Shown here: positions 2,876 through 60,200 of the stretch, piece after piece
Layout: each line of letters begins with the position of its first letter
Position numbering within the stretch: the first letter of the stretch is position 1
Assembly (NCBI GenBank): GCA_001821135.1
Contig: MHSA01000011.1
Location: 3,042 to 67,041, forward strand
DNA: 64,000 nt
Source: Candidatus Taylorbacteria bacterium RIFCSPLOWO2_01_FULL_48_100
GTDB taxonomy: Bacteria > Patescibacteriota > Minisyncoccia > Phycocordibacterales > UBA10002
Direction of reading: 5' to 3'
Program-made: the position numbers and the translations under genes
Notes under the pieces: model-generated
Told to the model about the DNA's origin: nothing
Database searches by the model: none
The model's input: the letters and a program-made list of their open reading frames with translations, nothing else

Positions 2876-3661
2876 ATGAAAAAAGGACACGCAATCACTC
2901 TTGGTATCGTCGCAGGTGTAATTATTTTAATACTCACTGCGATAGTTGGATATCTTTCAGGGAAAAACACACATCGTCCGCAGGCGATTTCAGTTACTAA
3001 CACTCCACCGCCCACCATTGTGGTGCAGACGAACGCGCCAAGTCAGGTTGACATGCTTGCCGCCGAGGTGGAGGCACTGAAGGCCGCCAATGAAGAAAGG
3101 GAGGCGAGGGTGCAGAGATTGCTCGCACTCAACGAAGAAGTTCGTCGGGAGCGGGAGACCAATGTCATCACAATACCCGTCACGGTGAATGTAACCAACA
3201 CACCATCTTCGGTGACTATTAACGGCACTTTTAATGTTGGTGGTTCATCAGAGGCAAAGAAGGCGGCGACTTCGTTGATGGAGCGAAGGCGTGCACCGAA
3301 AACGCGGACCCCGATGTACACCATCACAAACTCCACCTCGTCTGTGACGGTTTCTGGAACCACTACGGTTTCGGAGACACACACCTCGGTGCAGAACTTT
3401 CTGCCACCTGGACGGCGAAGTTTGCTCGGTGTGATTCTTTGGGGTCGGGCAAACCCCATTCCGACCACGGTGCCGAGCGGGCAAAGTGTCCAACAAGGAC
3501 AACCGCCGACGCCTATCGTGGTTGTCCAGCAACCATATGGATATGGGTATCCGTCTGGGTATGGCGGTGGGTATGGATACGGATATCCATACAGCCGAGT
3601 GCCCGCATATTCGGGTTCGTGTGAACGCAAACTCTTCGGAGTTCGCTTTCATACGAGGTAG
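2876..3661 (+). CDS. Hypothetical membrane-anchored protein with a Pro/Thr-rich region and a C-terminal Gly/Tyr/Pro low-complexity tail
   Basis: 261-aa ORF downstream of a strong promoter. It has an N-terminal TM helix, a coiled-coil-like AEVEALKAANEEREARVQRLLALNEE segment and a GYGYP repeat tail. No recognisable domain. Confidence 0.5.
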   Translation: MKKGHAITLGIVAGVIILILTAIVGYLSGKNTHRPQAISVTNTPPPTIVVQTNAPSQVDMLAAEVEALKAANEEREARVQRLLALNEEVRRERETNVITIPVTVNVTNTPSSVTINGTFNVGGSSEAKKAATSLMERRRAPKTRTPMYTITNSTSSVTVSGTTTVSETHTSVQNFLPPGRRSLLGVILWGRANPIPTTVPSGQSVQQGQPPTPIVVVQQPYGYGYPSGYGGGYGYGYPYSRVPAYSGSCERKLFGVRFHTR

Positions 3662-6142: not shown

Positions 6143-8656
6143 ATGATCTCAACGATGGCTGAAAAACAGAACAAGCGGCTGGTGCTTATAGATGCGCACG
6201 CGATACTGCATCGCGCATATCATGCGTTGCCGGAGTTTAGTAATAGCAAAGGCGAACCGACGGGCGGGCTCTATGGGCTTGCGGCGATGCTTATTAAAAT
6301 TATTGCGGATTTAAAACCCGACTATCTTGCTGCAGCGTACGATTTGCCGAAGCCGACTTTTCGGCATACTGCGTACAAAGAGTACAAAGAAGGGCGGGCG
6401 AAGGCAGACGATGCGCTCATTTCACAAATGAAACGCTCGCGCGAGATTTTTGAAGCGTTTGGAATCCCGATTTACGACAAAGAAGGGTTTGAAGCGGATG
6501 ATATTCTCGGTACGATTGTAGAAAAGTTACAAGTTACACGCTACAAGTTACAAGTTGATATAGTTATCGCGTCTGGCGATATGGACACCCTACAATTAGT
6601 TGATGGAAAAAAAGTGCAAGTGTACACACTCAAAAAAGGGATTAATGACACGGTTTTGTATGACGAAGAAAAAGTAAGAGAACGCTATGGATTTGGTCCA
6701 AAACTTTTACCGGATTTTAAGGGGTTGAAAGGCGACCCGTCGGATAATATAAAAGGAATAAAAGGGATTGGCGATAAAACTGCGACCGAACTCATACAAA
6801 AATTCGGCTCGGTTGAGGAAATCTATAAGAAGTTGAAGAAAGATAGGGGTATATTTGAGAAAGAAGGAATAAGTGCGCGAATGATTGGACTATTGGATGC
6901 GGGAAAAGAAGATGCTGAGTTTTCTAAAATACTCGGAACTATTCGGCGCGATGCGCCGATTGAATTCGCACTTCCTGAAAAGCCGTGGCGTGAGTGTGCG
7001 AATGTGGGTAATGCAGAAAAGTTATTTCAAGAGTTGGAGTTTCGCAACCTTGGGCAGAGGTTGCGGGCGGCGATATCAAAAGTTTCTTCATCTCGCCCTT
7101 TTCAAGGGGGAGTACCCGAGCGAAGCGAGGGGGAGGGGGTGGTTTCTGCAGAAATTAAATCACCCCTCCGCCCAGCACTTTCTTCAGAAAGTGCTGGGCA
7201 CCTCCCCTTAATCAAGGGCAGGATGAAAGAAAAAGAATTTTCCGACCTCTCCATCGCCCTTTGGCTCATCAATTCCAACCTAACAAACCCGACCGCGGAC
7301 GATGTGTGTAATTTTGCAGGAACGAAAGATGTGAGCGTGGCGCGCGCGAAAATTCTTGCGGAACTGAAAACGCGCGGCCTCGCGCGCGTATTTGAAGAGA
7401 TTGAAAAACCACTCATTCCTGTTGTTGAAAAAATGAACGCCCGCGGCGTGAAAATGGATACAAAGTATCTTGCCGTGCTTTCTACAGAGTACCACCGCGA
7501 GCTTGCTGCGCTGAAAAAAGAAATCTGGAGTATGGCTGGAACCGAATTTAATGTAAATTCACCAAAACAGCTTGGCGAACTTTTGTTTGTAAAAATGGGG
7601 CTTAAGGCGGCGCGACAGAAGAAGACGGCAGGAGGCGCGCTTTCAACACGCGAAAGCGAGCTTGAAAAGATGCGCGATTTGCACCCAATTATTGCGAAGA
7701 TTCTTGAGTACCGCGAGTTTCAGAAACTACTCTCAACCTATATTGACGCGCTTCCAGAATCGGTAGATACGCACGGTCGCTTGCACGCGTCGTTTTTGCA
7801 GGCGGGAACGACGACGGGGCGAATGTCGTCGCAAAATCCGAACTTGCAAAATATCCCCATTCAGACCGCGCGCGGCAGGCGGATTCGGAACGCATTCGTC
7901 GCGGATAATGGCTGTGCGCTCCTCGCGTTTGATTACTCGCAAGTAGAACTTCGCGTTGCGGCAATTCTTTCTGGAGACCAGAAACTTATTGAAATCTTCA
8001 AGAAAGGGGAAGATGTACATACTGCGGTGGCGGCGGAAGTTTTTGGTGTCGCGCCAGAAAAAGTGACTAAAGAAATGCGCCGACAGGCGAAAGTAATTAA
8101 CTTCGGAATTTTGTACGGTATGGGAGTGAATGCGTTGCGCGCTACACTCGGAGATGTAGAAACTCCAGTATCGCGCGCGGACGCGCAGAAATACTTGGAC
8201 GAATATTTCGCGCGCTTTCCAGTGCTCGCCGCGTATTTGGAAGAAACAAAAGCCGTCGCGCGCGAGCGCAGCTACACAGAGACCTTATTCGGGCGGCGCA
8301 GATATTTTGAGGCGCTCAATTCGCCGATTTCGTACATCCGCGCGGCAGCAGAGCGGCAAGTGATTAACGCGCCGATACAAGGCACTGCCGCAGATATCGT
8401 GAAAATTGCGATGGCTCGGGTGGCTGAATTTTTGCGAGACGAGAAATTAGACGAAAAAGCACGCTTGATTTTACAAGTGCATGATGAATTGGTATATGAA
8501 GTGAAAAAAGAGTCGGTTTCCGAGCTCGCGCCAAAAATACAAAAGATAATGGAGGGCGTGTTGTCTCCAGGGCAGTCGCGGGGTGTGCCGATTCTGGTAG
8601 AAGTGAGCGTCGGCGACAATTGGGGGGAGATGCGGAAGTTAGTGGAAAGTAGTTAG
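6143..8656 (+). CDS. polA: DNA polymerase I (5'-3' exonuclease domain plus family-A polymerase domain; no obvious 3'-5' proofreading domain)
   Basis: N-terminal LVLIDAHAILHRAYHA (5' nuclease). C-terminal family-A motifs DYSQVELR, the O-helix RRQAKVINFGILYG, and QVHDELV. Start placed at ATG 6143 (alternative 6155), after the upstream terminator. Confidence 0.9.
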   Translation: MISTMAEKQNKRLVLIDAHAILHRAYHALPEFSNSKGEPTGGLYGLAAMLIKIIADLKPDYLAAAYDLPKPTFRHTAYKEYKEGRAKADDALISQMKRSREIFEAFGIPIYDKEGFEADDILGTIVEKLQVTRYKLQVDIVIASGDMDTLQLVDGKKVQVYTLKKGINDTVLYDEEKVRERYGFGPKLLPDFKGLKGDPSDNIKGIKGIGDKTATELIQKFGSVEEIYKKLKKDRGIFEKEGISARMIGLLDAGKEDAEFSKILGTIRRDAPIEFALPEKPWRECANVGNAEKLFQELEFRNLGQRLRAAISKVSSSRPFQGGVPERSEGEGVVSAEIKSPLRPALSSESAGHLPLIKGRMKEKEFSDLSIALWLINSNLTNPTADDVCNFAGTKDVSVARAKILAELKTRGLARVFEEIEKPLIPVVEKMNARGVKMDTKYLAVLSTEYHRELAALKKEIWSMAGTEFNVNSPKQLGELLFVKMGLKAARQKKTAGGALSTRESELEKMRDLHPIIAKILEYREFQKLLSTYIDALPESVDTHGRLHASFLQAGTTTGRMSSQNPNLQNIPIQTARGRRIRNAFVADNGCALLAFDYSQVELRVAAILSGDQKLIEIFKKGEDVHTAVAAEVFGVAPEKVTKEMRRQAKVINFGILYGMGVNALRATLGDVETPVSRADAQKYLDEYFARFPVLAAYLEETKAVARERSYTETLFGRRRYFEALNSPISYIRAAAERQVINAPIQGTAADIVKIAMARVAEFLRDEKLDEKARLILQVHDELVYEVKKESVSELAPKIQKIMEGVLSPGQSRGVPILVEVSVGDNWGEMRKLVESS
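7095..7224. repeat. G/C-rich modular palindromic repeat element, copy B, inserted in-frame in the polA inter-domain linker (encodes ~43 aa: RPFQGGVPERSEGEGVVSAEIKSPLRPALSSESAGHLPLIKGR)
   Basis: Module GGGGGAGTACCCGAGCGAAGCGAGGGGGAGGGGGTG is identical to copy D at 39550-39642. Module CAGCACTTTCTTCAGAAAGTGCTGGGCACCTCCCC is shared with copy E. The ending CCTTAATCAAGGGCAGGAT is shared with copies C and D. Confidence 0.75.
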
Positions 8657-34498: not shown

Positions 34499-36152
34499 AC
34501 AGGCGGTTGCGGAAGCACTCACAAAACTTGGGATTAAAAATCCCGATGTGTCGTTGGAACACCCAGAGGAATTGTCGCACGGCGATTATTCCACGAATGT
34601 TGCGCTTCGGTATGCGAAAGAACTTAAAAAAAGCCCGCAGACAATCGCAGAAGATATAATACGATATATCGTACTACAGAAGATTCCAGCACTTGCGCGC
34701 GCGGAAGCGGCGGCAGGTTTTGTGAACTTTTTTCTCGCCGGAGAATTCTTTGCGGAACGAATACAAGAGATTTTGGAAAAGAAAGATGGTTTTGGAAAGC
34801 AGGATGTTGGAAAGGGAAGGAAAGTGGTTGTAGAATTTTCGTCTCCGAACATTGCAAAGCCGTTTACGATTGGGCATTTGCGCTCAACAATTATCGGAGA
34901 CGCAGTTGCGAAAACGCTCTCTTTTCTAGGATATTCTGTTATCCGCGACAATCACCTCGGTGATTGGGGTACGCAATTCGGAAAAATGATTGTTGCGATT
35001 AAGAAGTGGGGAGATATTCAGAAAATTGCAGAAAACGCGGCTCCTGTTAGAGCGTTGGTGGATTTGTATGTCTGTTTTCACGCTGAAGCAAAAACGAACA
35101 TCGCGCTTGAAGATGAGGCGCGTGAGTGGTTTGTGAAATTGGAGAAAGGAGATGAAGAAGCGCGCGGTTTGTGGAAGCAGTGCGTAGCGTGGTCAATGAA
35201 GGAGTTTGAGTCGCTGTACAAACGGCTTGGCGTTTCTTTTGATACGATGCATGGAGAGAGTTTTTTTGAAGATAAAATGCGCGCTGTGGTGGAGGATCTT
35301 GAACGGAAAAATCTCTTAAAAGAAAGCGAAGGCGCGCGGCTTGTATTTTTTCCTAGCGATTCCTTGCCGCCGCTTATGATAATAAAAAAAGACGGCGGGA
35401 CATTGTACGCGACTCGCGACCTGGCGACTGATGCATGGAGGAAAAGAGAGTATGGCGACGGGGTAATTATCGTCAATGAGACGGGCGGAGAGCAATCGCT
35501 GTATTTCAAGCAGGTTTTTATGCTGGAAGAAATGCTCGGCTGGTTTGCGCGCGGCGAGCGGGTGCACATCGGGCACGGGCTCACGCGTGGGAAAGAAGGG
35601 AAGATGAGCACGCGGGAGGGCAACACGATTTGGCTTGAAGATGTGCTTGACGAGGCAGTGAAGCGCGCGGAAGCAATAAATAAAGAGACGGCAGAAATAG
35701 TTGGAATCGGCGCGCTTAAGTTTAACGACTTGAAGCGGGAGGCGAAACAAGACACCATTTTTGATTGGAATGATGTGCTGAATATGAAAGGCGACTCTGG
35801 ACCGTACTTGCAGTATTCTTATGCGCGGGCAATGTCGGTAATCAGAAAATCCCCTCCTCAGTTGAGGAGGGGTGCCGAGTTCGCGAGGCGGGGTGGTGGT
35901 GTTACTACATTAGAACGCCTCCTTTACCGATTTCCTGAAGTCGTACTGCGCGCGGGCAAGGACTACGCGCCGCATTTTATTGCGACTTATCTTATTGAAT
36001 TAGCGGGCGCGTTTAACAATTGGTATGCGAAGGAGCGCATTCTTAATGCTGGGGAGGAAACGGAATACCGCCTCGCGCTCACCGCCGCATTCGCGCAGGT
36101 TATGAAAAATGGACTTTGGCTACTTGGCATCGCCGCGCCGGAGAAGATGTAA
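34479..36152 (+). CDS. argS: Arginine--tRNA ligase carrying a ~19-aa in-frame palindromic-repeat insertion near residue 455
   Basis: SSPNIAKPFTIGHLRSTIIGDA (HIGH-like), GDWGTQFGKMI, and a C-terminal DALR domain. The insertion SPPQLRRGAEFARRGGGVT is encoded by repeat copy G. Confidence 0.9.
   Translation: MVTESIKQAVAEALTKLGIKNPDVSLEHPEELSHGDYSTNVALRYAKELKKSPQTIAEDIIRYIVLQKIPALARAEAAAGFVNFFLAGEFFAERIQEILEKKDGFGKQDVGKGRKVVVEFSSPNIAKPFTIGHLRSTIIGDAVAKTLSFLGYSVIRDNHLGDWGTQFGKMIVAIKKWGDIQKIAENAAPVRALVDLYVCFHAEAKTNIALEDEAREWFVKLEKGDEEARGLWKQCVAWSMKEFESLYKRLGVSFDTMHGESFFEDKMRAVVEDLERKNLLKESEGARLVFFPSDSLPPLMIIKKDGGTLYATRDLATDAWRKREYGDGVIIVNETGGEQSLYFKQVFMLEEMLGWFARGERVHIGHGLTRGKEGKMSTREGNTIWLEDVLDEAVKRAEAINKETAEIVGIGALKFNDLKREAKQDTIFDWNDVLNMKGDSGPYLQYSYARAMSVIRKSPPQLRRGAEFARRGGGVTTLERLLYRFPEVVLRAGKDYAPHFIATYLIELAGAFNNWYAKERILNAGEETEYRLALTAAFAQVMKNGLWLLGIAAPEKM
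35846..35903. repeat. G/C-rich palindromic repeat element, copy G (AAATCCCCTCCTCAGTTGAGGAGGGGTGCCGAGTTCGCGAGGCGGGGTGGTGGTGTT), in-frame inside argS
   Basis: Shares the AAATCCCCTCCTCA(A/G)(C/T)TGAGGAGG module with copies E and F. Confidence 0.65.
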
Positions 36153-36159
36153 AATATAT

Positions 36160-39100
36160 ATGAACACAGACAATCAACAACAAAAAAAGACGATTGCCGA
36201 GAAAGAGAAAGAAATCTTGAAGTTTTGGAAAGAAAACAGGGTTTTTGAAAAAACATTGGAGAAAAAAGCTCCAAAAGGCGATTTCGTTTTTTACGACGGG
36301 CCGCCGTTTGCGACGGGGCTCCCGCACCACGGCTCGCTCCTCTCGTCTGTCATTAAAGATGTAGTACCGCGCTACAAGACAATGCGCGGGTTCCGCGTCG
36401 AGAGGCGGTGGGGGTGGGACTGCCACGGGCTTCCGATTGAGAGCTTGGTAGAAAAACGGCTTGGACTTAAAACGAAAAAAGACATTGAAAAAATCGGCGT
36501 TGCGGCGTTCAACGAAGCGGCGCGCGAGAGCGTGCTTGAATTTGAGAAAGAGTGGGAGAAATATATTGAACGGGTTGGGCGGTTTGTTGATTTCAAGAAC
36601 TCCTACAAGACGATGGACAACTCTTATATGGAGAGCGTGTGGGGCGCGCTGAAAAAGCTTCACGAAAAGAAATTGCTATACGAAGGAAAGAAAGTGCTTA
36701 TGTATTGCCCGCACTGTGAGACCCCGCTCGCAAAAGCGGAAATCGCGATGGATAATACCTATAAGAAAATTACTGAGGAGGCAGTTACTGTGAAGTTTAA
36801 GGTCAAAAATGAACCAAATACACATCTTTTGGCGTGGACGACGACGCCGTGGACATTGCCGGGGAATGTCGCTCTTGCTGTCGGTAAAAAGATTGTCTAT
36901 GTAAAAGCAAAAGTTGGTAGCGAGATTTTTATTATTGCAAAAGACCGTTTGGAAATATTGGATGGAAAACAATATGAAATTATTGAAGAGGTTGTCGGTA
37001 AAGATTTGGTGGGCTTGGAATACGAACCAGTTTACGGAGTACCTAAAATACTTAAACAATTTAAAATAAATGCAATTGAGCCGCATCGTATTCTTGAGGC
37101 AGGGTTTGTAAATACCAATGAGGGTACAGGAATTGTACACATTGCGCCAGCATACGGAGAAGAAGATTATCAGTTAGCGGGTCGCAATGATTTACCAATA
37201 GTGCAACTACTTGATGCTGGCGCGAAGTACAACGATAGCGCGCCTGAATTTTTGCGCTGTAAGTATGTAAAGAGCGCGGAAAAAGAAATAAAAGAGGATT
37301 TGGAAAAGCGCGCGTTTTTGTTTGCGCGCGCGATGAATACGCACGAGTACCCGCACTGTTACCGATGCGGCACCCCACTGATTTACAATGCGGTCCCGTC
37401 ATGGTTTATCGCTATACAAGATGCGAAAAAGAAGATGCTTTCGGAGAACGAAAAGATACAATGGGTGCCTGAGCACCTGAAGCATGGGCGCTTCAAGAAC
37501 ATCGTTGAAGGCGCGCCCGATTGGAACATTTCGCGAAGCCGCTTTTGGGCAACGCCATTGCCGATTTGGAAAGAAAAAGGTGGCGAGCGCGTAATGGTTG
37601 TTGGCTCGCTTGAAGAACTAAAAAAGCGCGTGAAAAAGTCGGGCAATCAATATTTTGTAATGCGGCATGGCGAGGCGGTAGATAATGCTGAACATAAAGA
37701 AGACATTTATGGCGACCCGCAGAATCATCTAACTGATAAAGGAAAGAAAGGTGCTGTGCATACAGCCGCTAATCTTAAAAAGGAGCGTATTGACCTCATT
37801 ATCACCTCGCCATTTGTGCGCACGCGCGAAACCGCTCTGCTTATCCAAAAAGAGCTCGGATTGTCGGACGATACGGTGGTAGTTGATGAACGCTTACACG
37901 AGCGCAACGAGCCGACCTTAGTAGAAGTGCGTCGGCGCGTGGGCGAATTCTTGTTTGAAATAGAGCGCCGCGAGCAAAACAAAAACATACTTATTGTCGG
38001 ACACGGCAGTCCGCTTTGGGTTTTGTCCCAAGTTGCGGAAGGCAAACCGTCGGACGATTTTCAAGACAGAGTGATGTTGGAACTTGCCAAAGCGCGCGCG
38101 CTTCCGTTTATTCCGTTTCCACATAACAAGGACTATGAGATTGATTTACACCGTCCGTGGATTGATGCACTGACGCTTGTTGATGAAGGTGGGAGAGAAT
38201 ACGAGCGCATTCCGGAAGTGGTTGATTGTTGGGTGGAATCGGCAGCGATGCCGTTTGCGTCCGGCACTGCGAAATACCCTGCGGACTTTATTGCAGAGTA
38301 TATTGCGCAAACGCGCACTTGGTTTTACTACCTCCACGCGCTCGGCATTTTGCTTGTGGGCAAGCGAGCGTTTAACGCAGTCGTGTCTACAGGAACGCTT
38401 CTCGCAGAAGATGGCGCAAAGATTTCTAAATCAAAAGGCAACTACACCGACCCGTTTCTTCTTATGGACAAGTATGGCGCAGATGCGTACCGCTTTTACC
38501 TTATGGGAAGCGTGGTGATGCAAGGCGAGGACCTTTCTTTTCGCGATAGCGATGTGCGCGAAGCGCACAATCGCGTTGTCGGAATACTCCGCAACTGCCT
38601 CGCTTTTTTTGAGTTGTATAAAAATAAATATGACGGAAATACGAAGGCGGAAGAAAGCGCGCACATTTTGGATAAATGGATTCGCGCGCACCTTAGGCGG
38701 AGTACGGCAGTAATTACGGATGCGATGGAGGCGTACGACACGCCTTCCGCATGCCGCGAGATTCGTGCGTTCACAGAAGATTATTCTACATGGTACATTC
38801 GCCGCTCGCGCGAACGGGTGAAGTCCGCCTCTTCTGCGGACGAGGCAGGTAGCGCTGACGCGCAACACTGCCTCGCAACCCAACGCGAAGTTCTTCTCGC
38901 GCTCTCAAAACTCATTGCGCCGATAATGCCGTTCTTGGCGGAGGAGATATATAAATCGGTTGACGGAGAAAAAGAGAGCGTGCATCTAGACGGATGGCCG
39001 GAAGTCGGAAGTCGAAAGTCGGAAGAAAAATTGTTTGAAGAAATGGAAAAAGTGAGGAAGATTGTGTCGCTCGCGCTGGAAGCGCGTGCGAAGGCGAATA

Positions 39101-39522
39101 TCAAAATACGGCAACCACTCGCTTTGCTCAAAATCCGAAATCCGAAATCCGAAATCCGAAATAAACCAGAATTACTTAATTTAATAAACGAAGAAATAAA
39201 TGTTAAGAAAATAATTTTTGATGAAGAAGTTGCAGGAGAAGTGGAATTAGATACAGCGATAACGCCAGAACTAAAAGAAGAAGGCGAGTTTCGCGGGCTT
39301 TTGCGCGCGGTACAGAATTTGCGCAAGAAAAAAGGTCTCACCATTTCCGATGTTGCAACGCTTCTTGTGGACACGAGCGCGGATGGCAAAAGGTTTGTTG
39401 AAAAGTTTTCAAGTGAACTCAAAAAATCCGCATTACTCAAAGATATTGAGTTTGTTTCGGTTGCGTATGGGGAAGCGGTTGCTGTTGGCGAACATACAGC
39501 CAAACTTGACATTCGGAAGTGA
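36160..39522 (+). CDS. ileS: Isoleucine--tRNA ligase with a ~165-aa histidine-phosphatase (PGM/SixA-like) domain inserted inside the catalytic core
   Basis: HIGH (PHHG), WNISRSRFWATPLPIW, DCWVESAAMPF and KMSKS (KISKSKG) are all present in order. Between PIW and DLHRPW lies YFVMRHGEAVDN ... ITSPFVRTRETALLI ... ILIVGHGSPLWVL, the RHG / SP.RA.ET / GHG motifs of the histidine phosphatase superfamily. Confidence 0.9.
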   Translation: MNTDNQQQKKTIAEKEKEILKFWKENRVFEKTLEKKAPKGDFVFYDGPPFATGLPHHGSLLSSVIKDVVPRYKTMRGFRVERRWGWDCHGLPIESLVEKRLGLKTKKDIEKIGVAAFNEAARESVLEFEKEWEKYIERVGRFVDFKNSYKTMDNSYMESVWGALKKLHEKKLLYEGKKVLMYCPHCETPLAKAEIAMDNTYKKITEEAVTVKFKVKNEPNTHLLAWTTTPWTLPGNVALAVGKKIVYVKAKVGSEIFIIAKDRLEILDGKQYEIIEEVVGKDLVGLEYEPVYGVPKILKQFKINAIEPHRILEAGFVNTNEGTGIVHIAPAYGEEDYQLAGRNDLPIVQLLDAGAKYNDSAPEFLRCKYVKSAEKEIKEDLEKRAFLFARAMNTHEYPHCYRCGTPLIYNAVPSWFIAIQDAKKKMLSENEKIQWVPEHLKHGRFKNIVEGAPDWNISRSRFWATPLPIWKEKGGERVMVVGSLEELKKRVKKSGNQYFVMRHGEAVDNAEHKEDIYGDPQNHLTDKGKKGAVHTAANLKKERIDLIITSPFVRTRETALLIQKELGLSDDTVVVDERLHERNEPTLVEVRRRVGEFLFEIERREQNKNILIVGHGSPLWVLSQVAEGKPSDDFQDRVMLELAKARALPFIPFPHNKDYEIDLHRPWIDALTLVDEGGREYERIPEVVDCWVESAAMPFASGTAKYPADFIAEYIAQTRTWFYYLHALGILLVGKRAFNAVVSTGTLLAEDGAKISKSKGNYTDPFLLMDKYGADAYRFYLMGSVVMQGEDLSFRDSDVREAHNRVVGILRNCLAFFELYKNKYDGNTKAEESAHILDKWIRAHLRRSTAVITDAMEAYDTPSACREIRAFTEDYSTWYIRRSRERVKSASSADEAGSADAQHCLATQREVLLALSKLIAPIMPFLAEEIYKSVDGEKESVHLDGWPEVGSRKSEEKLFEEMEKVRKIVSLALEARAKANIKIRQPLALLKIRNPKSEIRNKPELLNLINEEINVKKIIFDEEVAGEVELDTAITPELKEEGEFRGLLRAVQNLRKKKGLTISDVATLLVDTSADGKRFVEKFSSELKKSALLKDIEFVSVAYGEAVAVGEHTAKLDIRK

Positions 39523-52681: not shown

Positions 52682-53026
52682 TTAAATATTATCTGCTGTG
52701 CGATACGCATCAAGATATTTTTCGTTCGTTCTTCCGAAGCGGTCGCTCGCCGCGACTGTAATACTATTATATCCCGGTAAGAGTAGTGCCGTCTCTTGCC
52801 AGAGCCCGTTTTCATCGGTGAAAATCTGTTTGCCATTCAGCGATAAAAACGCAATCCGTTTCGCCTCGCCCCCGATATGTACAAGTGCTCCGTCCTGCGC
52901 GGTGCTTTCAATATAGAGGGAAGGGCCGCGTAAATATTCACGCGCCTGATATGTGCCGTACGACGCAAGTCCGGCAAGAGTGATAACCGCAAGCGCGAAC
53001 GCAAGCCGTGTGCGGAGATTTCTCAT
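52682..53026 (-). CDS. Hypothetical signal-anchored small protein
   Basis: 114-aa ORF between recA and ftsK on the same strand, with an N-terminal TM helix. Confidence 0.4.
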
Positions 53027-55164
53027 ACCGTTTCGGCCGGTTCTGTTGGCGCGATCGGCACTTCGGATTCCACCGCGCCACGTACCATTCGCGGCTTCGC
53101 GCCGTCTGCGGGCCCGATGACGCCGCGCTCCTCAAGAATATCCATTAAGCGCGCGGCGCGGGCGTATCCAACGCGTAATTTCCTTTGCAAGTATGAAGTA
53201 GATGCTTTACCAGCTCGTTCCACTTCTTCTTTTGCCGCTGCGTACAGGTCGTCATCAACATCTCTGTCGTCCGTAAACGCACTCTCCAATTGGTGTGGCG
53301 CGGAGATGTCTTGCACTGGTAGCTCCGCGCCGCCGCCGTCCGGATAGCGCTTTGTCAGAAAGCCCGCCACTTTTTTGACCTCATGTTCTGAAATGTATGA
53401 CGATTGAATACGCTCAGGTTTTGAGCGTTCTCCTGAAAGGAATAGCATATCGCCGCTTCCGAGCAGTTTTTCCGCGCCTCCTGTGTCTAAAATGGTTCGC
53501 GAGTCAATTTGCGAAACGACCTGCAGGGCAATACGGGAAGGAATGTTTGCTTTTATGAGACCTGTGATTACATTGACCGACGGACGCTGAGTGGATAGCA
53601 CGAGATGTATACCGACCGCGCGGCTCATTTGCGCGAGGCGCACCACGGCGGCTTCCAGCTCGCGCGGGTACGAAGACATAATGTCTGCAAGTTCATCAAT
53701 CACAACAACGAGGAAGGGAAGCGGGTCCTGCTTTTCGGGCGCGGGTAGAAATATGTTTTTATGATACGAATCAATGTCGCGGACCGATTCTTGTTCCAAA
53801 ATGTCGTAGCGTCTATCCATTTCTTTCGCGGTCCAGCGCAGGGCTTGTATAGCTTTCTTTGCATCCGTAATAACTGGAGTTAGGAGATGGGGTATGCCGT
53901 TGTAAAGCGTTAATTCAACGCGCTTCGGGTCAATAAAAATAAAGCGGAGTTGTTCGGGAGAATTGCGATAGAGTAGCGACGCGATAAGAGTATGTATGGC
54001 GACGGATTTTCCCGAGCCAGTCGCTCCGGCGATAAGAAGGTGAGGCATTTTTGCAAGGTTGGCGAAGTGGAGTTTACCTGCGACGCTTTTCCCAAGCGCG
54101 AAGAAAAGTTGTTTTTCCGCACTCGCAAACTCTTCGCTCCCAAGAAGGTTTCCGAGCCGCACGGTCGCGCGCGCGGTGTTCGGAATCTCAATGCCGACGA
54201 GCGAGCGGCCCGGAATCGGCGCTTCAATGCGAATGGAGTGTGCGGCAAGCGCGAGCGCAAGGTCGTTTTGCCGCGCGACTATTCCAGTCAACTTTACTCC
54301 CTCGGCTGGTTTTAGTGCGTAACGAGTTACCGATGGTCCAATAGACACCTCATCCATTTCAACATCAATGCCAAAGTTGCGGAGCGTACGCTTAATAATA
54401 TTGGAATTTGCTTTGATGTCTCCAACATCTGGTTTGCCGTGATCACGCTCAAGCATTGAAAGCGGCGGTGGCTCGTACGCTCCGAAGCGCACACGCATTT
54501 TTTTCTTAGGTTCCCATGCGGCTTCTTCCGCTTCTGCAACAAGATTAGGTGTTTGCTCGCTAGTCGTCTCATTTTCGGTTTCAGGATTTTCTTTTTCAGT
54601 TTCATTTATATTATCTTCTTCTACAACATCAGTATCTTCTTCACCGTGTATTTTTATTGGAGGACGCGCGAAGCGCGCGATAAAATTCCATACGCGCGTA
54701 AGCGGGGAGAGCGAAATGCGCACATTAAAGGCGAGCGAGAGCGTTACGAGCGCGATTGCGCCAAGAAGCACAATACTCGCGTAGCGGTCAAACAAAGATA
54801 CGAACGCGTCTGCGATTCCAGCTCCGGCGAGCCCGCCGCGCGACGGGAGTACGAGCTCGGTGAGCCCAAGTGTTGCCGCGATAAAAAGCAGTACGCCCAC
54901 TGTTTTAACAAAAGAAATCTTTTTACTGTCTTCGCTTGAGCGGAATATCGTGATTGCGCCATATAGAAGCGCGAGCGGGAATAGGAAATACGCCCTTCCT
55001 AAAAACGCCTCAAAAGTGCCGAGCAGGAGAGTGCCTACAAATCCCGCTTTTCCGATTCCCGCGAGCACTGCAAAAAGAGCGAGTGCAAAAAGAATTATCG
55101 CGCCAACCCTGCGACCTATTGCCGGTTTAATCCACGGATCAGTTTCTTTTTTTCGTTTAGCCAT
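53023..55164 (-). CDS. ftsK: DNA translocase FtsK/SpoIIIE
   Basis: N-terminal TM helices, a linker, the motor domain with PHLLIAGATGSGKSV Walker A, and a C-terminal gamma (wHTH) domain. Confidence 0.9.
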   Translation of the reverse strand: MAKRKKETDPWIKPAIGRRVGAIILFALALFAVLAGIGKAGFVGTLLLGTFEAFLGRAYFLFPLALLYGAITIFRSSEDSKKISFVKTVGVLLFIAATLGLTELVLPSRGGLAGAGIADAFVSLFDRYASIVLLGAIALVTLSLAFNVRISLSPLTRVWNFIARFARPPIKIHGEEDTDVVEEDNINETEKENPETENETTSEQTPNLVAEAEEAAWEPKKKMRVRFGAYEPPPLSMLERDHGKPDVGDIKANSNIIKRTLRNFGIDVEMDEVSIGPSVTRYALKPAEGVKLTGIVARQNDLALALAAHSIRIEAPIPGRSLVGIEIPNTARATVRLGNLLGSEEFASAEKQLFFALGKSVAGKLHFANLAKMPHLLIAGATGSGKSVAIHTLIASLLYRNSPEQLRFIFIDPKRVELTLYNGIPHLLTPVITDAKKAIQALRWTAKEMDRRYDILEQESVRDIDSYHKNIFLPAPEKQDPLPFLVVVIDELADIMSSYPRELEAAVVRLAQMSRAVGIHLVLSTQRPSVNVITGLIKANIPSRIALQVVSQIDSRTILDTGGAEKLLGSGDMLFLSGERSKPERIQSSYISEHEVKKVAGFLTKRYPDGGGAELPVQDISAPHQLESAFTDDRDVDDDLYAAAKEEVERAGKASTSYLQRKLRVGYARAARLMDILEERGVIGPADGAKPRMVRGAVESEVPIAPTEPAETV

Positions 55165-55198
55165 GATGTAAATAATAGTAGCATATTTAATTTGTTTC

Positions 55199-55346
55199 CA
55201 AATCTCCCACTCAGTTGAGGGGGAGTACTTGAGTCCGTCTAATGCGGACGAATAGGAAGGGTGGGTTCGGGAAAAACACCACCACCTCCCCCAGCACTTT
55301 CTAAAGAAAGTGCTGGGTACTCCTCCTCAATTAATGAGGAGATTTA
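55199..55346. repeat. G/C-rich modular palindromic repeat element, copy E (largest, ~148 bp)
   Basis: AAATCTCCCACTCAGTTGAGGGGGAG ... CAGCACTTTCTAAAGAAAGTGCTGGGTACTCCTCCTCAATTAATGAGGAGATTT. Shares modules with copies B, F and G. Confidence 0.7.
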
Positions 55347-55409
55347 AATATAACACAAAAGAAAAACCGCCGTTCGCAAAAGATGTATGGCGGTTTCTGT
55401 AACATCAGT

Positions 55410-55652
55410 TTATTTGTAGCATTTTTTTTCGTTTGATTTACAAACCTCCTCGTAACTTATCCAGAACACTAAAACAAAGAGTATTGCCGCAAACGCAGGT
55501 AGTGTCCACAGTGTTCCCTCAAAAGAGAGGAATAAAAGACAACCCAATAAAAGCAGCAAAAACATTTTCGGTTTCCTTATCACCGCAATTGCTATGCTAA
55601 AGGCATCTTTTATGTTTTTTCGATTATTCTTCATAGCGTCCACTTTCTTCAT
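55410..55652 (-). CDS. Hypothetical small membrane protein flanked by repeat copies E and F
   Basis: 80-aa ORF with one or two TM helices. Confidence 0.35.
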   Translation of the reverse strand: MKKVDAMKNNRKNIKDAFSIAIAVIRKPKMFLLLLLGCLLFLSFEGTLWTLPAFAAILFVLVFWISYEEVCKSNEKKCYK

Positions 55653-55721
55653 TACACAAAACTGTCCAGTAAAGAATATACACTACACCGTTTATCGCGT
55701 CAACATTTTGTATATGTTCCA

Positions 55722-55751
55722 AAATCCCCTCCTCAACTGAGGAGGAGATTA
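55722..55751. repeat. Palindromic repeat element, copy F (AAATCCCCTCCTCAACTGAGGAGGAGATT)
   Basis: Minimal module also present in copies E and G. Confidence 0.6.
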
Positions 55752-55813
55752 AAGAGAAGCACCTTGCCTTGCTCACCCTTCTGTTTCCCATCGCAAAAAA
55801 CGCTTGAAAGAAC

Positions 55814-56650
55814 AAATGTCTTTTATGTATAATACAAATGTCCTTTATAAATGTCCGTTAGATTTTATAAACGACATTCATATATGTATAAAAAGAGCAT
55901 AAAGGACATTAGAAGAAATACAAATGTCCTTTATAAAAAGACAGAATATCCCGATATGTCCTTTATAGGCGGAGAGTACTTGATTTTCCTTGTTAAAAAG
56001 GTAGAAAACTTTGTTCGCGCTATATACCTAATAACAAATTTTCTATCGGACAGTGAGCCGTTAAAATGGAGATTACGGACAATCTCAACTGAATTAATTG
56101 ATAAGTTAATGTCCTTTATAAAAAGTGAAGTAAATCAAGTGAATATTCGTTTGTACCGCGCGGACTTTTTAGGGTGTCTCTCCGGTATTGTATCTCTGTT
56201 GAATGTAGGAGAAGAGGGCGGCGTTATTTCTGAAGCGAATGTTGCGCTTCTAAAGAGGGAAATACAAAGCTTTTTCCCCATTTTTAATGAGAGAATCTTT
56301 GTGATGCGCAAGGACGATATTGAAAATCTTCCGCTTGCAAAAAATAAAGAGGCGTCTTTTCGGCACAAACCTGCGCGCGGAAGACCCCGTCTTATGCGGA
56401 GGTTGTCCGTTAGAAACACTGAAGATGTTTTAATAAGTCCTATACAGGATTCTGATAACATACAAAATGTCTTTTATAAACATAAAGGACAAGACAATGT
56501 AAGCGTTCGTAAAAGAAATAAAAGAACAAGAAACATAGAAGACATAAGGTCAAAACTGCGCATCACTCGCCAGAAATCAATTATGGATATTCTAAAGGAC
56601 AAAAAGAAGTTAACAATTCGTGAGTTAATGTCCTTTATAAAGGACTGCGG
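55814..56650. repeat. Iteron-like array: at least 8 copies of ATGTCCTTTATAAA (and its inverse ATAAAGGACAT) in the promoter region and within the coding sequence of the 55851-56774 gene
   Basis: Copies at approximately 55819, 55838, 55898 (inverted), 55924, 55957, 56109, 56468 with adjacent inverted copy 56481, 56593 (inverted, partial: TAAAGGACAAAAAG) and the perfect palindrome GTCCTTTATAAAGGAC at 56631. Confidence 0.7.
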
Positions 56651-56774
56651 TGAGAAAACACTTCAGCGGGATTTATACGAATTGTCCGATAAGGGCGTGT
56701 TAAAAAAAGAGGGAGAAAAAAGGTGGAGTGCTTATTCTTTTGTTCAGCCGCTTCTATTATTTGATGGAAAATGA
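55851..56774 (+). CDS. Hypothetical DNA-binding protein with a C-terminal winged helix-turn-helix; the coding sequence itself contains the iteron motif (MSFIK peptide repeats)
   Basis: The C-terminal SIMDILKDKKKLTIRELMSFIKDCGEKTLQRDLYELSDKGVLKKEG is a DeoR/MarR-like wHTH. AT-rich gene. Confidence 0.5.
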   Translation: MSVRFYKRHSYMYKKSIKDIRRNTNVLYKKTEYPDMSFIGGEYLIFLVKKVENFVRAIYLITNFLSDSEPLKWRLRTISTELIDKLMSFIKSEVNQVNIRLYRADFLGCLSGIVSLLNVGEEGGVISEANVALLKREIQSFFPIFNERIFVMRKDDIENLPLAKNKEASFRHKPARGRPRLMRRLSVRNTEDVLISPIQDSDNIQNVFYKHKGQDNVSVRKRNKRTRNIEDIRSKLRITRQKSIMDILKDKKKLTIRELMSFIKDCGEKTLQRDLYELSDKGVLKKEGEKRWSAYSFVQPLLLFDGK

Positions 56775-57275
56775 GTTAAATAATTGACCATTTTTTGTGT
56801 ATATGCGATACTTATCGATGTGGATTCACGCGGGTTTCTACAAGAAACCTTTAGTTATCCACACATATATTTTGCGCATAAAAACTATGCGTCTTATAAT
56901 GTTTTATCAGCCCTTTGACAATTTAATAGTACACAGGTAAGATAGACAAAGTTGCATTGCGCCATATACCATTAAAACGACATTGCGCACATGCTTGTTA
57001 CGAAAGTAGTAATTATTCACCTTACCAACAATCCCTTTTTGTTTCTGTTGGCGATGACAGAAACCAAAGAAAAAGGGCGTTGGACCCGCATCATTTTTTT
57101 TATAAAAAAGTGATACTGGGTGCCAAACCGCTTTGAGCGTGTGCGCGTCGAACGCGCGCGCTCCGCAGTTGCGGTTTATAGAAAAAATCGTAGTTTGTTT
57201 TTCGGCATTATTGTTTTTTTATTAATAAATACCGAAAAGCAAATTATCCCTTAGTATTAATTTTTAGCTTTATTT

Positions 57276-60200
57276 ATGGATACCATTATTACATCCAAGA
57301 CAAAATGGCTTGCAGTAGGACTTGTGGGTGTGGGAGTGGCGGCGGTTCTCTTTGCGGGTGCGTTCGCTCAAACAGCGAGCGCGCAAAGCTTGACGCTCAA
57401 AGACCTGGTGGAACTTTTCATCAGCTTGGGCATCATTGCTCCTGACAAAGCGGCACAGGCGCGCACAGCGGTCTCATCACCTTCTACTACCGTAAGCACG
57501 ACATTTACCAAAAACCTCACTGTCGGTTCTACCGGTAGTGATGTGAAGGCGCTTCAGCAATTCCTTAACGGTAAGGGATACACTGTGGCTTCTTCGGGTC
57601 CGGGTTCAGCTGGGAACGAATCAATGTATTTCGGTCCGGCAACTCGGGCGGCTCTCGCAAAATATCAGGCGGCACAGGGTATTTCCCCGGCAGTCGGATA
57701 TTTCGGTCCTGCCACTCGTGCCAGTGTTAATTCAATGACGGGCGGCACGCCAATAACTACGCCAGGCACGACACCAGGGACATCTCCGGTTGTCACGGTT
57801 CCTGCGGGAACGGGGCTTGTTGTATCTTCAACGGAACAGCCGGCGGCAGGTCTTGCGCCTGAAAACGCAGCGCGCGTTCCGTTTACCAAATTCACCCTCA
57901 CCGCTGGCTCAAGCGATGTTGTGGTGAGCAACTTGACGATTGAGCACTCAACTTTGGCGGGAGATGCGATATTCTCCGGCGTTATTCTCCTTGATGAGAA
58001 CGGCACGCAAGTTGGTGTTTCCAAAACCTTCAATTCCAATCACCAAGCAACGCTCGGCGAAGCATTCACGGTGAAAGCGGGCACTTCCAAAATGATGACG
58101 ATTGCCGGCAACATGGCGGCAAACAACGATGCGCGCGCCGGCGAAATCTCAAGCATTAAACTGCTTGCGGTGAACACCTCGGCGACAGTATCGGGCTCGC
58201 TACCGATTTCAGGCGCATCGCATACGGTCAACTCAACGCTTGCGCTTGGTTCTGTAACGAACGAGCGCGGTCCGCTTGACCCGAATGCGGCAGTTAACAA
58301 GAATGTCGGCGTAACAGGGTACACTTTCTCGTCTATCCGAGTTACTGCCGGTTCGCAGGAAGACATCCGCATTCATTCCATTCGTTGGAATCAGGCGTCT
58401 TCCGTTGGCGCATCCGACCTTGCAAATGTGAAGACAATTGTTGACGGTACTGAATACGCAGCCACGATTTCTTCAGACGGCAAGTATTACACATCAACAT
58501 TCGGAACCGGCATTGTTGTTGCAAAAGGTCTCAACAAGGAGCTTTCCGTGAAAGCAGATATTGTCGGTGGCTCTGGACGCACTATTGCGTTCAATGTTGA
58601 AAAAACAACCGACATCTACATTACCGGCGAACGGTATAAGTACGGCATTACGCCCGCCACATCAGGCACGGGCTTTACGGCAGGCGTAATCTGGTACCCG
58701 GGAAAAACGGTAACGGTTGATACAGGTTCTCTGACGGTTGAAAATGCCACTTCGGTTTCAGCAACCAACATTGCTGTTACACTTGCAAACCAAGCACTAG
58801 GCGGCTTTACGGTTGACATAAAAGGTGAGCCGATTACAGTTGCATCCAGCGCTTTCACCTTTACGACGACCGGCACCGCAACTGCGGGCGGAGATGCACA
58901 AATCACCAATGTAACGCTTGTTGACGAAAACGGCACCGTCGTTGCTGGTCCTTCAGATGTAGGACACACAGGAACTCTAACCTTAGCTGACACTATTCTT
59001 TATAGTGTTGGTAAGAAGGCCTACACACTTAAAGGTAAGGTTGGCTCGGGCTTCGGTTCAAATGGAACGGTTGCCGTAACATTTGTACCTTCAACAGCTT
59101 GGACGACCGTAACAGGACAAGTAACGGGTAAGACGATTTCAACATCGTCAATGACCACATCATCCGTTGCGCTCAGCACAATGACCGTGAAGACCGCATC
59201 GCTTGCGATCAGCGTTTCTTCACAGCCGGCGGCGCAGACGATTGTTGCGGGTGCACAGCAGTTCACCTTTGCGAACATTCAATTGTCCGCAATTGATTCA
59301 GGCGAAGATGTGTCTATGAACGCTCTTCCGCTTGACTATGAATTGGTGTCCGGTACTACCAATGTAACGAGTTGCAACCTGTACAACGGTTCAGTTCAAC
59401 TCACTTCGGGTACGAACACGGTTGACCCGTCAGGCGACGACAATTCCAAGAGCTTTACCTTTGATTCCCAGATAACAGTTCCGAAGGGAACAGTGTTAAC
59501 GCTTGCGGTAAAGTGCAACATCCCGTCTTCAATTACCTCGGGCTCATTCTCGTTCGGCTACAACGACGCTTCGTCTCCGACGGCGACTGGAAAGGTTTCC
59601 GGTTCATCGGTAACGGTAACGGAGAACACTTCAGCTGGACAGACGATTACCATAACGAGCAGCGGTTCGCTCACAGTTGAGCTTTCCGGCCAAAGCCCGT
59701 CATACACGCTCGCGTCAGCAGGAACGACCGACTATGTCGCAAGCATCTTGCGCGTTCGGGCGACCAACGAAGCGGTGCGCATTGACGACCTTGCGCTCTC
59801 GCTCGCGGCAGCAGATGTGAACGCCGCTTCCAGCTCCCTTTCTGATTTGGCGGGCGGTAAAGTAACTCTCTGGGACGGCGTAGACAAAGTCGGCGAGGCA
59901 ACCTTCGTAACAAGCGCGTACTTCAATACAGCTTCTACGACAGTTTCTACCTGCGCTGGCTGCAAAGAGTTCATTGTTCCGAAAGATGAGTACAAGGACA
60001 TCACGGTAAAAGTTGACCTCTCGGCGCAAGGAACCAGCCAAGCAGGCACTCCAGGCGCGTTCGTTAGAGTTGATTACGAGAATGCGCGCGGCACCTTCGG
60101 CGGTATAAAGGGCACCGGTTCGCAGAGCGGCACGAAAGTTACAGGAACGAGTGCTGATACTGCGGCTTCGGGCTTCCGCGTTGTGAAATCGGTACCGACG

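Follow-up and report, generated by a model that had tools for sequence, protein, structure and literature searches.

Why should one short sequence recur a dozen times, in both orientations, inside and immediately upstream of a single protein-coding gene? This question is raised by a 64,000-nt stretch of contig MHSA01000011.1 from Candidatus Taylorbacteria bacterium RIFCSPLOWO2_01_FULL_48_100 (hereafter the window, whose positions give all coordinates unless another locus is named), in which the gene for a predicted winged helix-turn-helix (wHTH) protein carries such an array. A preliminary description of this DNA offered two possibilities, a replication module (Rep/ori) from a plasmid or phage and a mobile-element repressor under strong autoregulation. 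Our answer, for which sequence comparison and structural modelling give us slightly better than even confidence, is that the protein acts as a multivalent autorepressor on an operator array that reaches into its own coding sequence (CDS).

The 14-mer ATGTCCTTTATAAA has eight matches with up to two mismatches in the window, all of them between 55838 and 56647, where 0.47 would be expected and none of 100 shuffles reached eight. The informative, conserved unit of this 14-mer is the 10-bp core TGTCCTTTAT, present with at most one mismatch in 12 copies between 55817 and 56646, in both orientations; outside the array, the remaining window holds only five scattered one-mismatch matches. From start to start, the 12 copies are 22, 28, 32, 26, 32, 153, 358, 14, 110, 37 and 8 bp apart, and the array segment has a GC content of 0.37-0.39 compared with ~0.49 elsewhere in the window. 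The copies are listed below with two occurrences of a variant; L-numbers denote loci from other genomes or contigs compared with the window, and the close clade comprises seven loci (the window, L001 and L005-L009) with protein identities of 51-79%.

55817 to 55826, plus strand: copy 1, TGTCTTTTAT, one mismatch, within the spacer of the promoter; L005 has an exact copy at the homologous place.
55839 to 55848, plus strand: copy 2, exact, near the predicted +1 of transcription; the close orthologues compared have it at -45 (-46 in L009).
55852 to 55862, plus strand: conserved variant TGTCCGTTAGA, directly after copy 2.
55867 to 55876, minus strand: copy 3, one mismatch, part of the 5′ leader; copy 2 is its partner in an inverted pair (arms 55832-55851 and 55864-55883).
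55899 to 55908, minus strand: copy 4, exact, coding as I-K-D.
55925 to 55934, plus strand: copy 5, exact, coding as N-V-L-Y-K; 14 invariant nucleotide columns over seven species.
55957 to 55966, plus strand: copy 6, exact, coding as M-S-F-I.
56110 to 56119, plus strand: copy 7, exact, coding as M-S-F-I in the helical bundle; at +226 in all seven close orthologues.
56404 to 56414, plus strand: second TGTCCGTTAGA variant, in the linker; kept in five of seven orthologues.
56468 to 56491, both strands: copies 8 (start 56468, plus, one mismatch) and 9 (start 56482, minus, exact), the inverted pair TGTCTTTTAT-AAAC-ATAAAGGACA in the linker, coding as NVFYKHKGQ.
56592 to 56601, minus strand: copy 10, one mismatch, coding as L-K-D-K at the start of the wHTH module.
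56629 to 56646, both strands: copies 11 (start 56629, plus, exact) and 12 (start 56637, minus, one mismatch), overlapping in the perfect palindrome GTCCTTTATAAAGGAC (56630-56645), coding as MSFIKD in the HTH.

Nine of the 12 copies lie in the CDS and three upstream of it, since the start codon is that at 55884 and not 55851 or 55956. The open reading frame (ORF) spans 55851-56774 on the plus strand, and its start was placed by codon alignment of seven orthologues: from 55884 onward the reading frame is preserved, with variable third positions beneath a conserved T[ED]YPD, and 5′ of 55884 the frame breaks in L009. The preliminary description had noted at least eight copies of the 14-bp motif in both orientations, a perfect palindrome as the last intragenic repeat, repeated peptides arising from the copies (MSFIK, NVLYK and NVFYKHKGQ traces in our hands) and an AT-rich locus, all of which the analysis bears out. 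It had also placed four or five copies upstream and four in the CDS; copies do occur in both places, but the counts are those given here.

At the close-clade loci, most sites stand at equal offsets (-45, -17, +41, +73 and +226 and, at most of the seven loci, about +584, +708 and +745), and the flanks differ. In distant clades, three to five copies are left, upstream and within the gene, and the motif is kept down to 26-31% protein identity. Across 20 loci/species we counted 81 exact cores in 18.6 kb of gene regions compared with a single one in 369 kb of flanks, a density about 1000-fold higher; the motif is therefore not a common AT-rich promoter element found genome-wide. Beyond the 10-bp core, the position matrix shows a weak A/T preference only.

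Within the CDS, the copies occupy all three reading frames and both orientations, coding as MSFI, NVLYK, IKD, KGQ and LKDK. For synonymous codons (those of an invariant, degenerate amino acid), 11 of 14 in the motif were identical in all seven species compared with 19 of 100 outside it (Fisher p = 1.8e-5), and 72% of nucleotide columns were invariant inside the motif compared with 38% outside. In distant homologues, the tripeptide IKD is encoded by ATAAAGGAC in 15 of 22 cases (3.8% expected), and its isoleucine is ATA in all 22 against a background of 24%. The linker is otherwise unalignable, its sole conserved peptide traces being motif-derived, and those of NVLYK and KGQ persist in homologues of 29% identity. 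Because the copies stand in all three frames and both orientations and their synonymous positions are frozen, these alignments indicate that selection acts on the motif DNA itself and not just on the encoded peptide.

The protein itself has 296 amino acids (aa) and the following layout.

55884 to 56774, plus strand: CDS of the 296-aa protein, from the codon alignment.
55974 to 56291, plus strand: four-helix bundle, aa 31-136, AlphaFold model with a predicted local distance difference test (pLDDT) score >90.
56292 to 56522, plus strand: disordered basic linker, aa 137-213, with an AT-hook-like RGRPR at 56376-56390 in the close clade.
56523 to 56741, plus strand: long helix and winged HTH, aa 214-286, AlphaFold model.

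The AlphaFold model was built on an alignment of 81 sequences. Structure prediction of the N-terminal part, a check that the preliminary description had proposed, yielded the confident bundle and then the disordered linker, and the C-terminal wHTH that it had recognised was found both in the model and as the sole Pfam/NCBIfam domain match, a weak DeoR-type HTH (HTH_DeoR-like, aa 229-275) that was matched as HTH_DeoR in 70 of the 81 family members. All 81 sequences share the recognition-helix residues K-T-x-Q-R-x-L and G-x-x-R-W-x-x-Y, and the wing is likewise invariant. None of the 81 members had a DeoRC effector-domain match or any family match in the N-terminal half, where no Pfam entry (PF05635, 23S_rRNA_IVP, included) was hit at E ≤0.1. 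A structure search with the model returned pentameric S23/Avd four-helix bundles as the top relatives of the bundle, and the best sequence match in a profile-to-PDB search was 2gsc, which is weak (E = 0.22) and also among those top structural relatives. The predicted model has an Avd/S23-type four-helix-bundle fold, the fusion of which to a linker and wHTH is, as modelled, a new architecture. A word-indexed search found 118 homologues, most of them annotated as hypothetical, and every source name giving a taxon was Parcubacteria, Paceibacterota, Patescibacteria or Niyogibacteria; the full profile search gave 2,521 clusters at 50% identity (E <1e-30). The protein belongs to a conserved, chromosomal Parcubacteria/Paceibacteria family with predicted DNA binding.

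Upstream of the gene, the three copies of the motif lie at its best promoter candidate.

55804 to 55833, plus strand: predicted sigma-70-type promoter, -35 TTGAAA at 55804-55809, 18-nt spacer, -10 TATAAT at 55828-55833; 11 of 12 matches, the best in the region.

Copy 1 lies in the spacer of this promoter, copy 2 at about its +1 and copy 3 in the leader, and orthologues of both the close and the distant clades share the arrangement (TTGCAA or TTGATA, 16-18 nt, TATAAT, with a motif-like site in the spacer and two to five copies in the leader). This overlap of sites with a predicted promoter gives the classical geometry of autorepression, and the invariance of recognition helix and wing parallels that of the 10-mer. 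Of the autoregulated mobile-element repressor suggested earlier, the array, its cognate wHTH protein and the autoregulation are thus the best supported part, with sites on the predicted promoter family-wide; its mobile nature does not stand.

What the analysis shows is an array that is deeply conserved as DNA and overlaps the promoter, together with the fold and the synteny described below; we infer from this that the wHTH protein is the binder, what its oligomeric state is and which sign the regulation has. The N-terminal Avd/S23-like bundle would oligomerise, its structural relatives being pentamers, and several wHTH domains would hang from one oligomer on flexible basic linkers of ~80 residues, each reading one non-palindromic 10-bp site (wwwTGTCCTTTATaa). 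Such tethering would make either orientation and irregular spacing workable. Occupancy of the three sites over promoter spacer, transcription start and leader would block RNA polymerase and so bring about autorepression, and the nine sites in the CDS would be auxiliary, raising local avidity, looping or coating the gene, serving as roadblocks and making repression steep. Probably the protein also has a few binding places elsewhere on the chromosome.

Several points weigh against this model. What links the protein to the motif is the co-occurrence of motif and gene, and binding is deduced from it. Simple autorepression needs the promoter sites only, so nine conserved intragenic sites would imply something more. 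Nor is the motif private to the wHTH gene: it is also found at cca, tRNA and xth loci next to DnaA boxes and at another giant surface-protein gene, so that a different factor could be its reader, for example a TrmB-like regulator recurring near cca. The oligomeric state is extrapolated from distant structural relatives, and Pfam does not put the N-terminal domain in the Avd/S23 family. Finally, Niyogibacteria retain the gene, its recognition helix and the DnaA box, with only degenerate remnants of the motif, and have lost the ftsK synteny.

Before the alternatives are weighed, the genomic setting has to be considered. In 17 species-level genomes the order is the same, with EF-P, recA, a 114-aa protein and ftsK on one strand, the wHTH gene divergent from them and then a PG_binding surface-protein gene; among these genomes FtsK is 52-72% identical, and the identity of the wHTH protein goes down to 26-31%. 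The search of related genomes for motif and gene that the preliminary description had called for thus finds both in a conserved neighbourhood. Its view of a variable locus does not hold for the gene, because the position of the gene is conserved, and applies to a ~550-bp insertion only: from ftsK to the gene the distance is 719 bp in the window compared with ~150-180 bp in L001 and L005-L009. Likewise, the palindromic repeats that were thought to flank the gene have both of their clear elements on the ftsK side.

55165 to 55760, no strand assigned: species-specific insertion, ~550 bp, between ftsK and the conserved intergenic block, outside the conserved module.
55200 to 55345 and 55722 to 55750, no strand assigned: palindromic elements in the insertion; a third family member lies at 35854.
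55410 to 55652, minus strand: 80-aa membrane ORF with two transmembrane segments, in the insertion and absent from sister species.

Three further observations concern the neighbouring genes and the wider window. The 114-aa protein between recA and ftsK (52682-53026, minus strand) has no Pfam match and keeps its position in all 17 species examined. Upstream of the PG_binding surface-protein gene (1,211 aa in the window), a conserved non-coding stretch at 57037-57195 shows three hairpins in seven species, the middle one being variable with its pairing preserved by two-sided changes in 10 pairs; it has no Rfam match and is a candidate structured 5′ leader. Farther away, 36109-39522 encodes a class-I aminoacyl-tRNA synthetase (tRNA-synt_1 and Anticodon_1) with a His_Phos_1 domain inserted at aa 516-600.

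To place the motif beyond its home gene, we scanned metagenomes for pairs of exact cores with 5-35 bp between them and obtained at least 120 loci. Among the matches listed, 17 carry the wHTH gene (L065 adds one), 28 represent a second conserved Parcubacteria neighbourhood (UPF0102, tRNAs, cca, a ~350-nt non-coding region, xth, a XerC/D-like recombinase and rpsO) and 75 are others, mostly collagen-like KGQ repeats, tandem repeats or chance. The cca loci have two to three copies inside cca (one fixed position), coding as YKGQ...DIKDK or AIKDI...DIKDK. Many genomes carry a cca-type composite, TTATCCACA-N3-15-TGTCCTTTAC-N2-TGTCCTTTAT followed by a -10-like hexamer; a second composite, beside tRNA genes, consists of a motif copy and then two tandem DnaA boxes; and at several Parcubacteria loci only 3-15 bp separate a motif pair from a perfect DnaA box. 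Equal features are seen at three cca loci fetched by protein similarity alone, with no motif criterion. A TrmB-like HTH gene recurs in synteny with the cca region, and parS-like sequences, TGTTTCACGTGAAACA with 0-2 mismatches, are found in and just after cca in many Parcubacteria, often as two copies 48 bp apart.

L150, 10888 to 10951: parS-like sites.
L236, 10873 to 10936 and 11508: parS-like sites.
L075, 1328 to 1391: parS-like sites.
L047, 4226: parS-like site.

Outside the cca neighbourhood, L109 has a motif cluster 90-160 bp upstream of a 1,239-aa PG_binding surface-protein gene (3230-3300, including the palindrome TGTCCTTTATAAAGGACA) and four more copies inside that gene (6621-6973), with no wHTH gene adjacent, and L123 has four copies in a ComFC-like gene. 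On comparing the match lists, no genome common to cca-type loci and the wHTH gene was found; by source names, both groups are Parcubacteria/Patescibacteria. As the motif clusters at these extra loci, the wHTH protein probably has a small regulon or a DnaA-linked architectural role. Two observations from these loci stand apart. The ~350-nt conserved non-coding region between convergent cca and xth (L150 11495-11840; L236 11530-11845; L075 1990-2300) is preceded on the minus strand by a DnaA box, two motif copies and a -10-like hexamer; Rfam gave tRNAs only around the cca composites and no family for this region, which may be an unknown non-coding RNA. In L124, two arrays of a 19-bp tandem repeat, gtcattccgTGTCCTTTAT, surround an AT-rich segment (335-400 and 830-940) and contain the core; they probably belong to an unrelated repeat element.

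The recurrence of DnaA boxes in these composites brings up the box at the wHTH locus itself.

56855 to 56863, plus strand: perfect DnaA box TTATCCACA, 81 bp past the stop codon and ~30 nt upstream of a TATAAT; the window's only perfect box.

Nearly all orthologous loci (L001-L025) have a perfect box at the same position and in the same orientation, ~20-31 nt upstream of TATAAT, which suggests DnaA-dependent control of the downstream transcript. The window has this one perfect box and no origin-type cluster, and the closest copy of the motif is 210 bp away from it. The preliminary description had proposed GC skew and DnaA boxes as a check for a nearby origin, and the outcome was negative: an oriC at the wHTH locus is rejected, the window having just one perfect box, neither a parS nor, among its large ORFs, a dnaA, and no skew minimum. 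A terminus or fork-trap, with a terminator protein beside its Ter sites as for RTP and Tus, was an idea that came from the ftsK neighbour and from the position of the gene at 0.50 of the record in the complete genome CP066691. It gained no support: the cumulative skew in the window flattens near 50 kb but tracks gene strand, the skew of CP066691 does not flip at the gene, and the gene stands at 0.91 in another, 840-kb contig. At the cca loci, the skew flips at cca in one of eight. A cluster of DnaA boxes in L011 was also rejected as an origin, its boxes being part of REP-like palindromes (7040-7110 and 7950-8010) that hold a perfect DnaA-box sequence and flank an ORF (7209-7931) reading like an IS200/Y1-type transposase.

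Second to the autorepressor we rank an explanation that puts the chromosome first and control of the gene second. The array would serve mainly in cis, as a chromosomal site, and the protein, an architectural or cell-cycle factor, would nucleate a nucleoprotein complex there on its own gene, much like ParB on the parS within spo0J. With DnaA as its partner it would act at a small number of sites that are ori-proximal or DnaA-controlled, with a part in replication control, DnaA titration or chromosome organisation. We regard this as unlikely. The many conserved intragenic sites speak for it, as do the DnaA box after the gene in nearly every species, the recurrence of the DnaA-box/motif composite at cca-type loci with their tandem boxes and parS-like sites, the fixed neighbours ftsK and recA and the predicted multivalent architecture. 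Against this stand the lack of a DnaA-box cluster, parS or dnaA in the window and a GC skew that does not turn at the gene in the complete genome and turns at cca in the single case mentioned; moreover, the composite lies directly upstream of -10-like hexamers, which fits ordinary promoter control, and the match lists yielded no genome with both a cca-type locus and the wHTH gene. Its boldest form would see a pentameric Avd-like hub with five tethered winged helices as a hitherto unrecognised multivalent chromosome factor of Paceibacteria, coating its own gene and, with DnaA, marking a handful of DnaA-box-containing and parS-proximal sites in and around cca, tRNA and surface-protein genes. This we consider more doubtful still; if true, the state of replication would be tied to division and recombination (through ftsK-recA), to tRNA maturation and to expression at the cell surface, so that an ultra-small bacterium would have a minimal cell-cycle circuit.

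The motif could also be read by another protein, such as a global regulator like the TrmB-like HTH protein near cca or a partner of DnaA, with the wHTH gene as its most heavily controlled target. The presence of the motif at several unrelated loci would follow naturally, the TrmB-like gene is syntenic with the cca region, and Niyogibacteria keep the wHTH recognition helix and not the motif. We nevertheless judge this improbable, as every species has by far its densest set of sites at the wHTH gene, the sites overlap that gene's own predicted promoter, and recognition helix and 10-mer have stayed invariant side by side across deep divergence.

Control at the RNA level, in which AUAAAGGACA units in leader and mRNA together with hairpins of opposite-sense copies would govern translation or stability, possibly through an RNA-binding protein, draws on the fact that the sense-strand orientation ATAAAGGACA dominates, accounting for nearly all transcribed copies in the distant clade and in cca; in addition, copies 2/3 and 8/9 can form hairpins and the motif holds a Shine-Dalgarno-like AAAGGA. 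The close clade, however, mixes orientations, and coding accounts for the prevalence of the sense strand among the intragenic copies of distant clades and of cca, since ATAAAGGACA gives the hydrophilic IKD and KGQ, which fit disordered linkers, and the opposite sense gives the hydrophobic MSFI and VLY. In both clades there are also copies 5′ of the -10, within the spacer or the -35 region, the cca composites have copies upstream of their -10-like hexamers, and Rfam has no known RNA family in 54900-57500, all of which leaves RNA-level control very improbable.

An iteron origin with a Rep initiator, or a repressor belonging to some plasmid, phage or integrated element, is scarcely credible at this locus: a repeat array beside a DNA-binding protein gene, low GC and a nearby DnaA box recall such modules, as does one phage-like IMG/VR contig with motif copies, but the gene has housekeeping synteny in 17 species and >2,500 clusters at 50% identity, Pfam/NCBIfam and the model give a four-helix bundle and a single wHTH with no Rep domain or fold (such as Rep_3 WH1-WH2), no Rep, integrase, partition, mobility or reverse transcriptase gene and no repeats of diversity-generating retroelements (DGRs) lie within 10 kb on either side, and the sites are irregular, in both orientations and mostly coding. 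Regular tandem iterons with a DnaA-box cluster were not found in the non-coding DNA, AT-rich unwinding elements not having been searched for. The Rep/ori idea of the preliminary description therefore falls at this locus and survives in part only, in the motif lying 3-15 bp from perfect DnaA boxes elsewhere in Parcubacteria. A link to phages was also set aside: the 85 viral contigs carrying the motif pair mostly hold collagen-like KGQ repeats (9-bp periodicity) or tandem repeats, and none has a member of the protein family. The IMG/VR contig just mentioned (L197, 3500-3600) has seven copies of GTCCTTTAT/C, all in one orientation, on a 100-bp stretch inside a 1.2-kb non-coding gap and may be a mobile element exploiting the host factor.

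An autoregulated DNA-binding protein with an operator array is a known kind of system; what is new here is the Avd-like bundle-wHTH architecture, the extent to which operators are embedded in the CDS, the depth of their conservation and the pairing with DnaA boxes. We found no paper on the motif in this context or on the protein family. Paceibacteria are uncultured and, to our knowledge, almost nothing is known of their gene regulation. One invariant 10-bp site and one conserved, unannotated family with no Pfam entry for its N-terminal domain form a pair that is testable in vitro without cultivation. The array is an unusually clear DNA signal, written through a CDS in three frames and held for very long, and it constrains the evolution of protein and codons alike. 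Its recurrence beside perfect DnaA boxes and parS-like sites at a second locus offers a first handle on replication- or cell-cycle-linked control in bacteria of the candidate phyla radiation, and the predicted fusion of an Avd-like bundle to a winged helix would suggest a function for a fold family that is enigmatic outside DGRs.

Comparison with known systems puts these features into context. Iteron modules such as pPS10 RepA, RK2 TrfA and Vibrio RctB also have repeated sites beside the gene of a winged-helix protein that partly autoregulates, with a DnaA box nearby; here, in contrast, the gene is a chromosomal core gene without a Rep fold, without regular tandem iterons of 17-22 bp and without a cluster of DnaA boxes, and most sites are in the CDS. 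The parS site inside the spo0J/parB gene is a closer parallel in that conserved sites within the regulator's own coding sequence and in a few other genes suggest nucleation of a complex, and parS-like sites occur at cca loci. However, parS is a single 16-bp palindrome, whereas the present sites are non-palindromic, 10 bp long and packed in arrays of 10-13 per kb, and Pfam/NCBIfam find no ParB N-terminal domain in the protein. Regulators that bind beside DnaA boxes, namely Spo0A at the 0A-boxes of the B. subtilis oriC, Caulobacter CtrA, H. pylori HP1021 and M. tuberculosis MtrA, resemble the situation at the Parcubacteria loci with closely spaced motif pairs and boxes. Unlike them, our protein is not a response regulator, the Parcubacteria loci are not established oriC, and the box in the window is at a distance from the array. 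Avd, the accessory variability determinant of DGRs, and the S23 ("23S rRNA intervening-sequence") proteins share the predicted bundle (PDB 4dwl, 8ub7, 2rld, 2gsc), which is here fused to a linker and wHTH and, unlike in Avd systems, has neither a reverse transcriptase nor DGR repeats nearby, nor a match to PF05635. Finally, LacI with O1, O2 and O3 (O2 inside lacZ), GalR with OE and OI (OI inside galE) and DeoR with its multi-operator loop are repressors with multiple, intragenic auxiliary operators. As in those systems, the operators here overlap the controlled promoter, extra sites lie in coding sequence, an oligomer is predicted to bind cooperatively or by looping, and the HTH is DeoR-like. 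The HTH is C-terminal, however, and is not joined to a DeoRC or LacI-type effector domain, whereas DeoR combines an N-terminal HTH_DeoR with a C-terminal DeoRC. The present system differs further in having single non-palindromic 10-mers as its sites, nine of them within the regulator's own gene, set in three frames and frozen over deep divergence.

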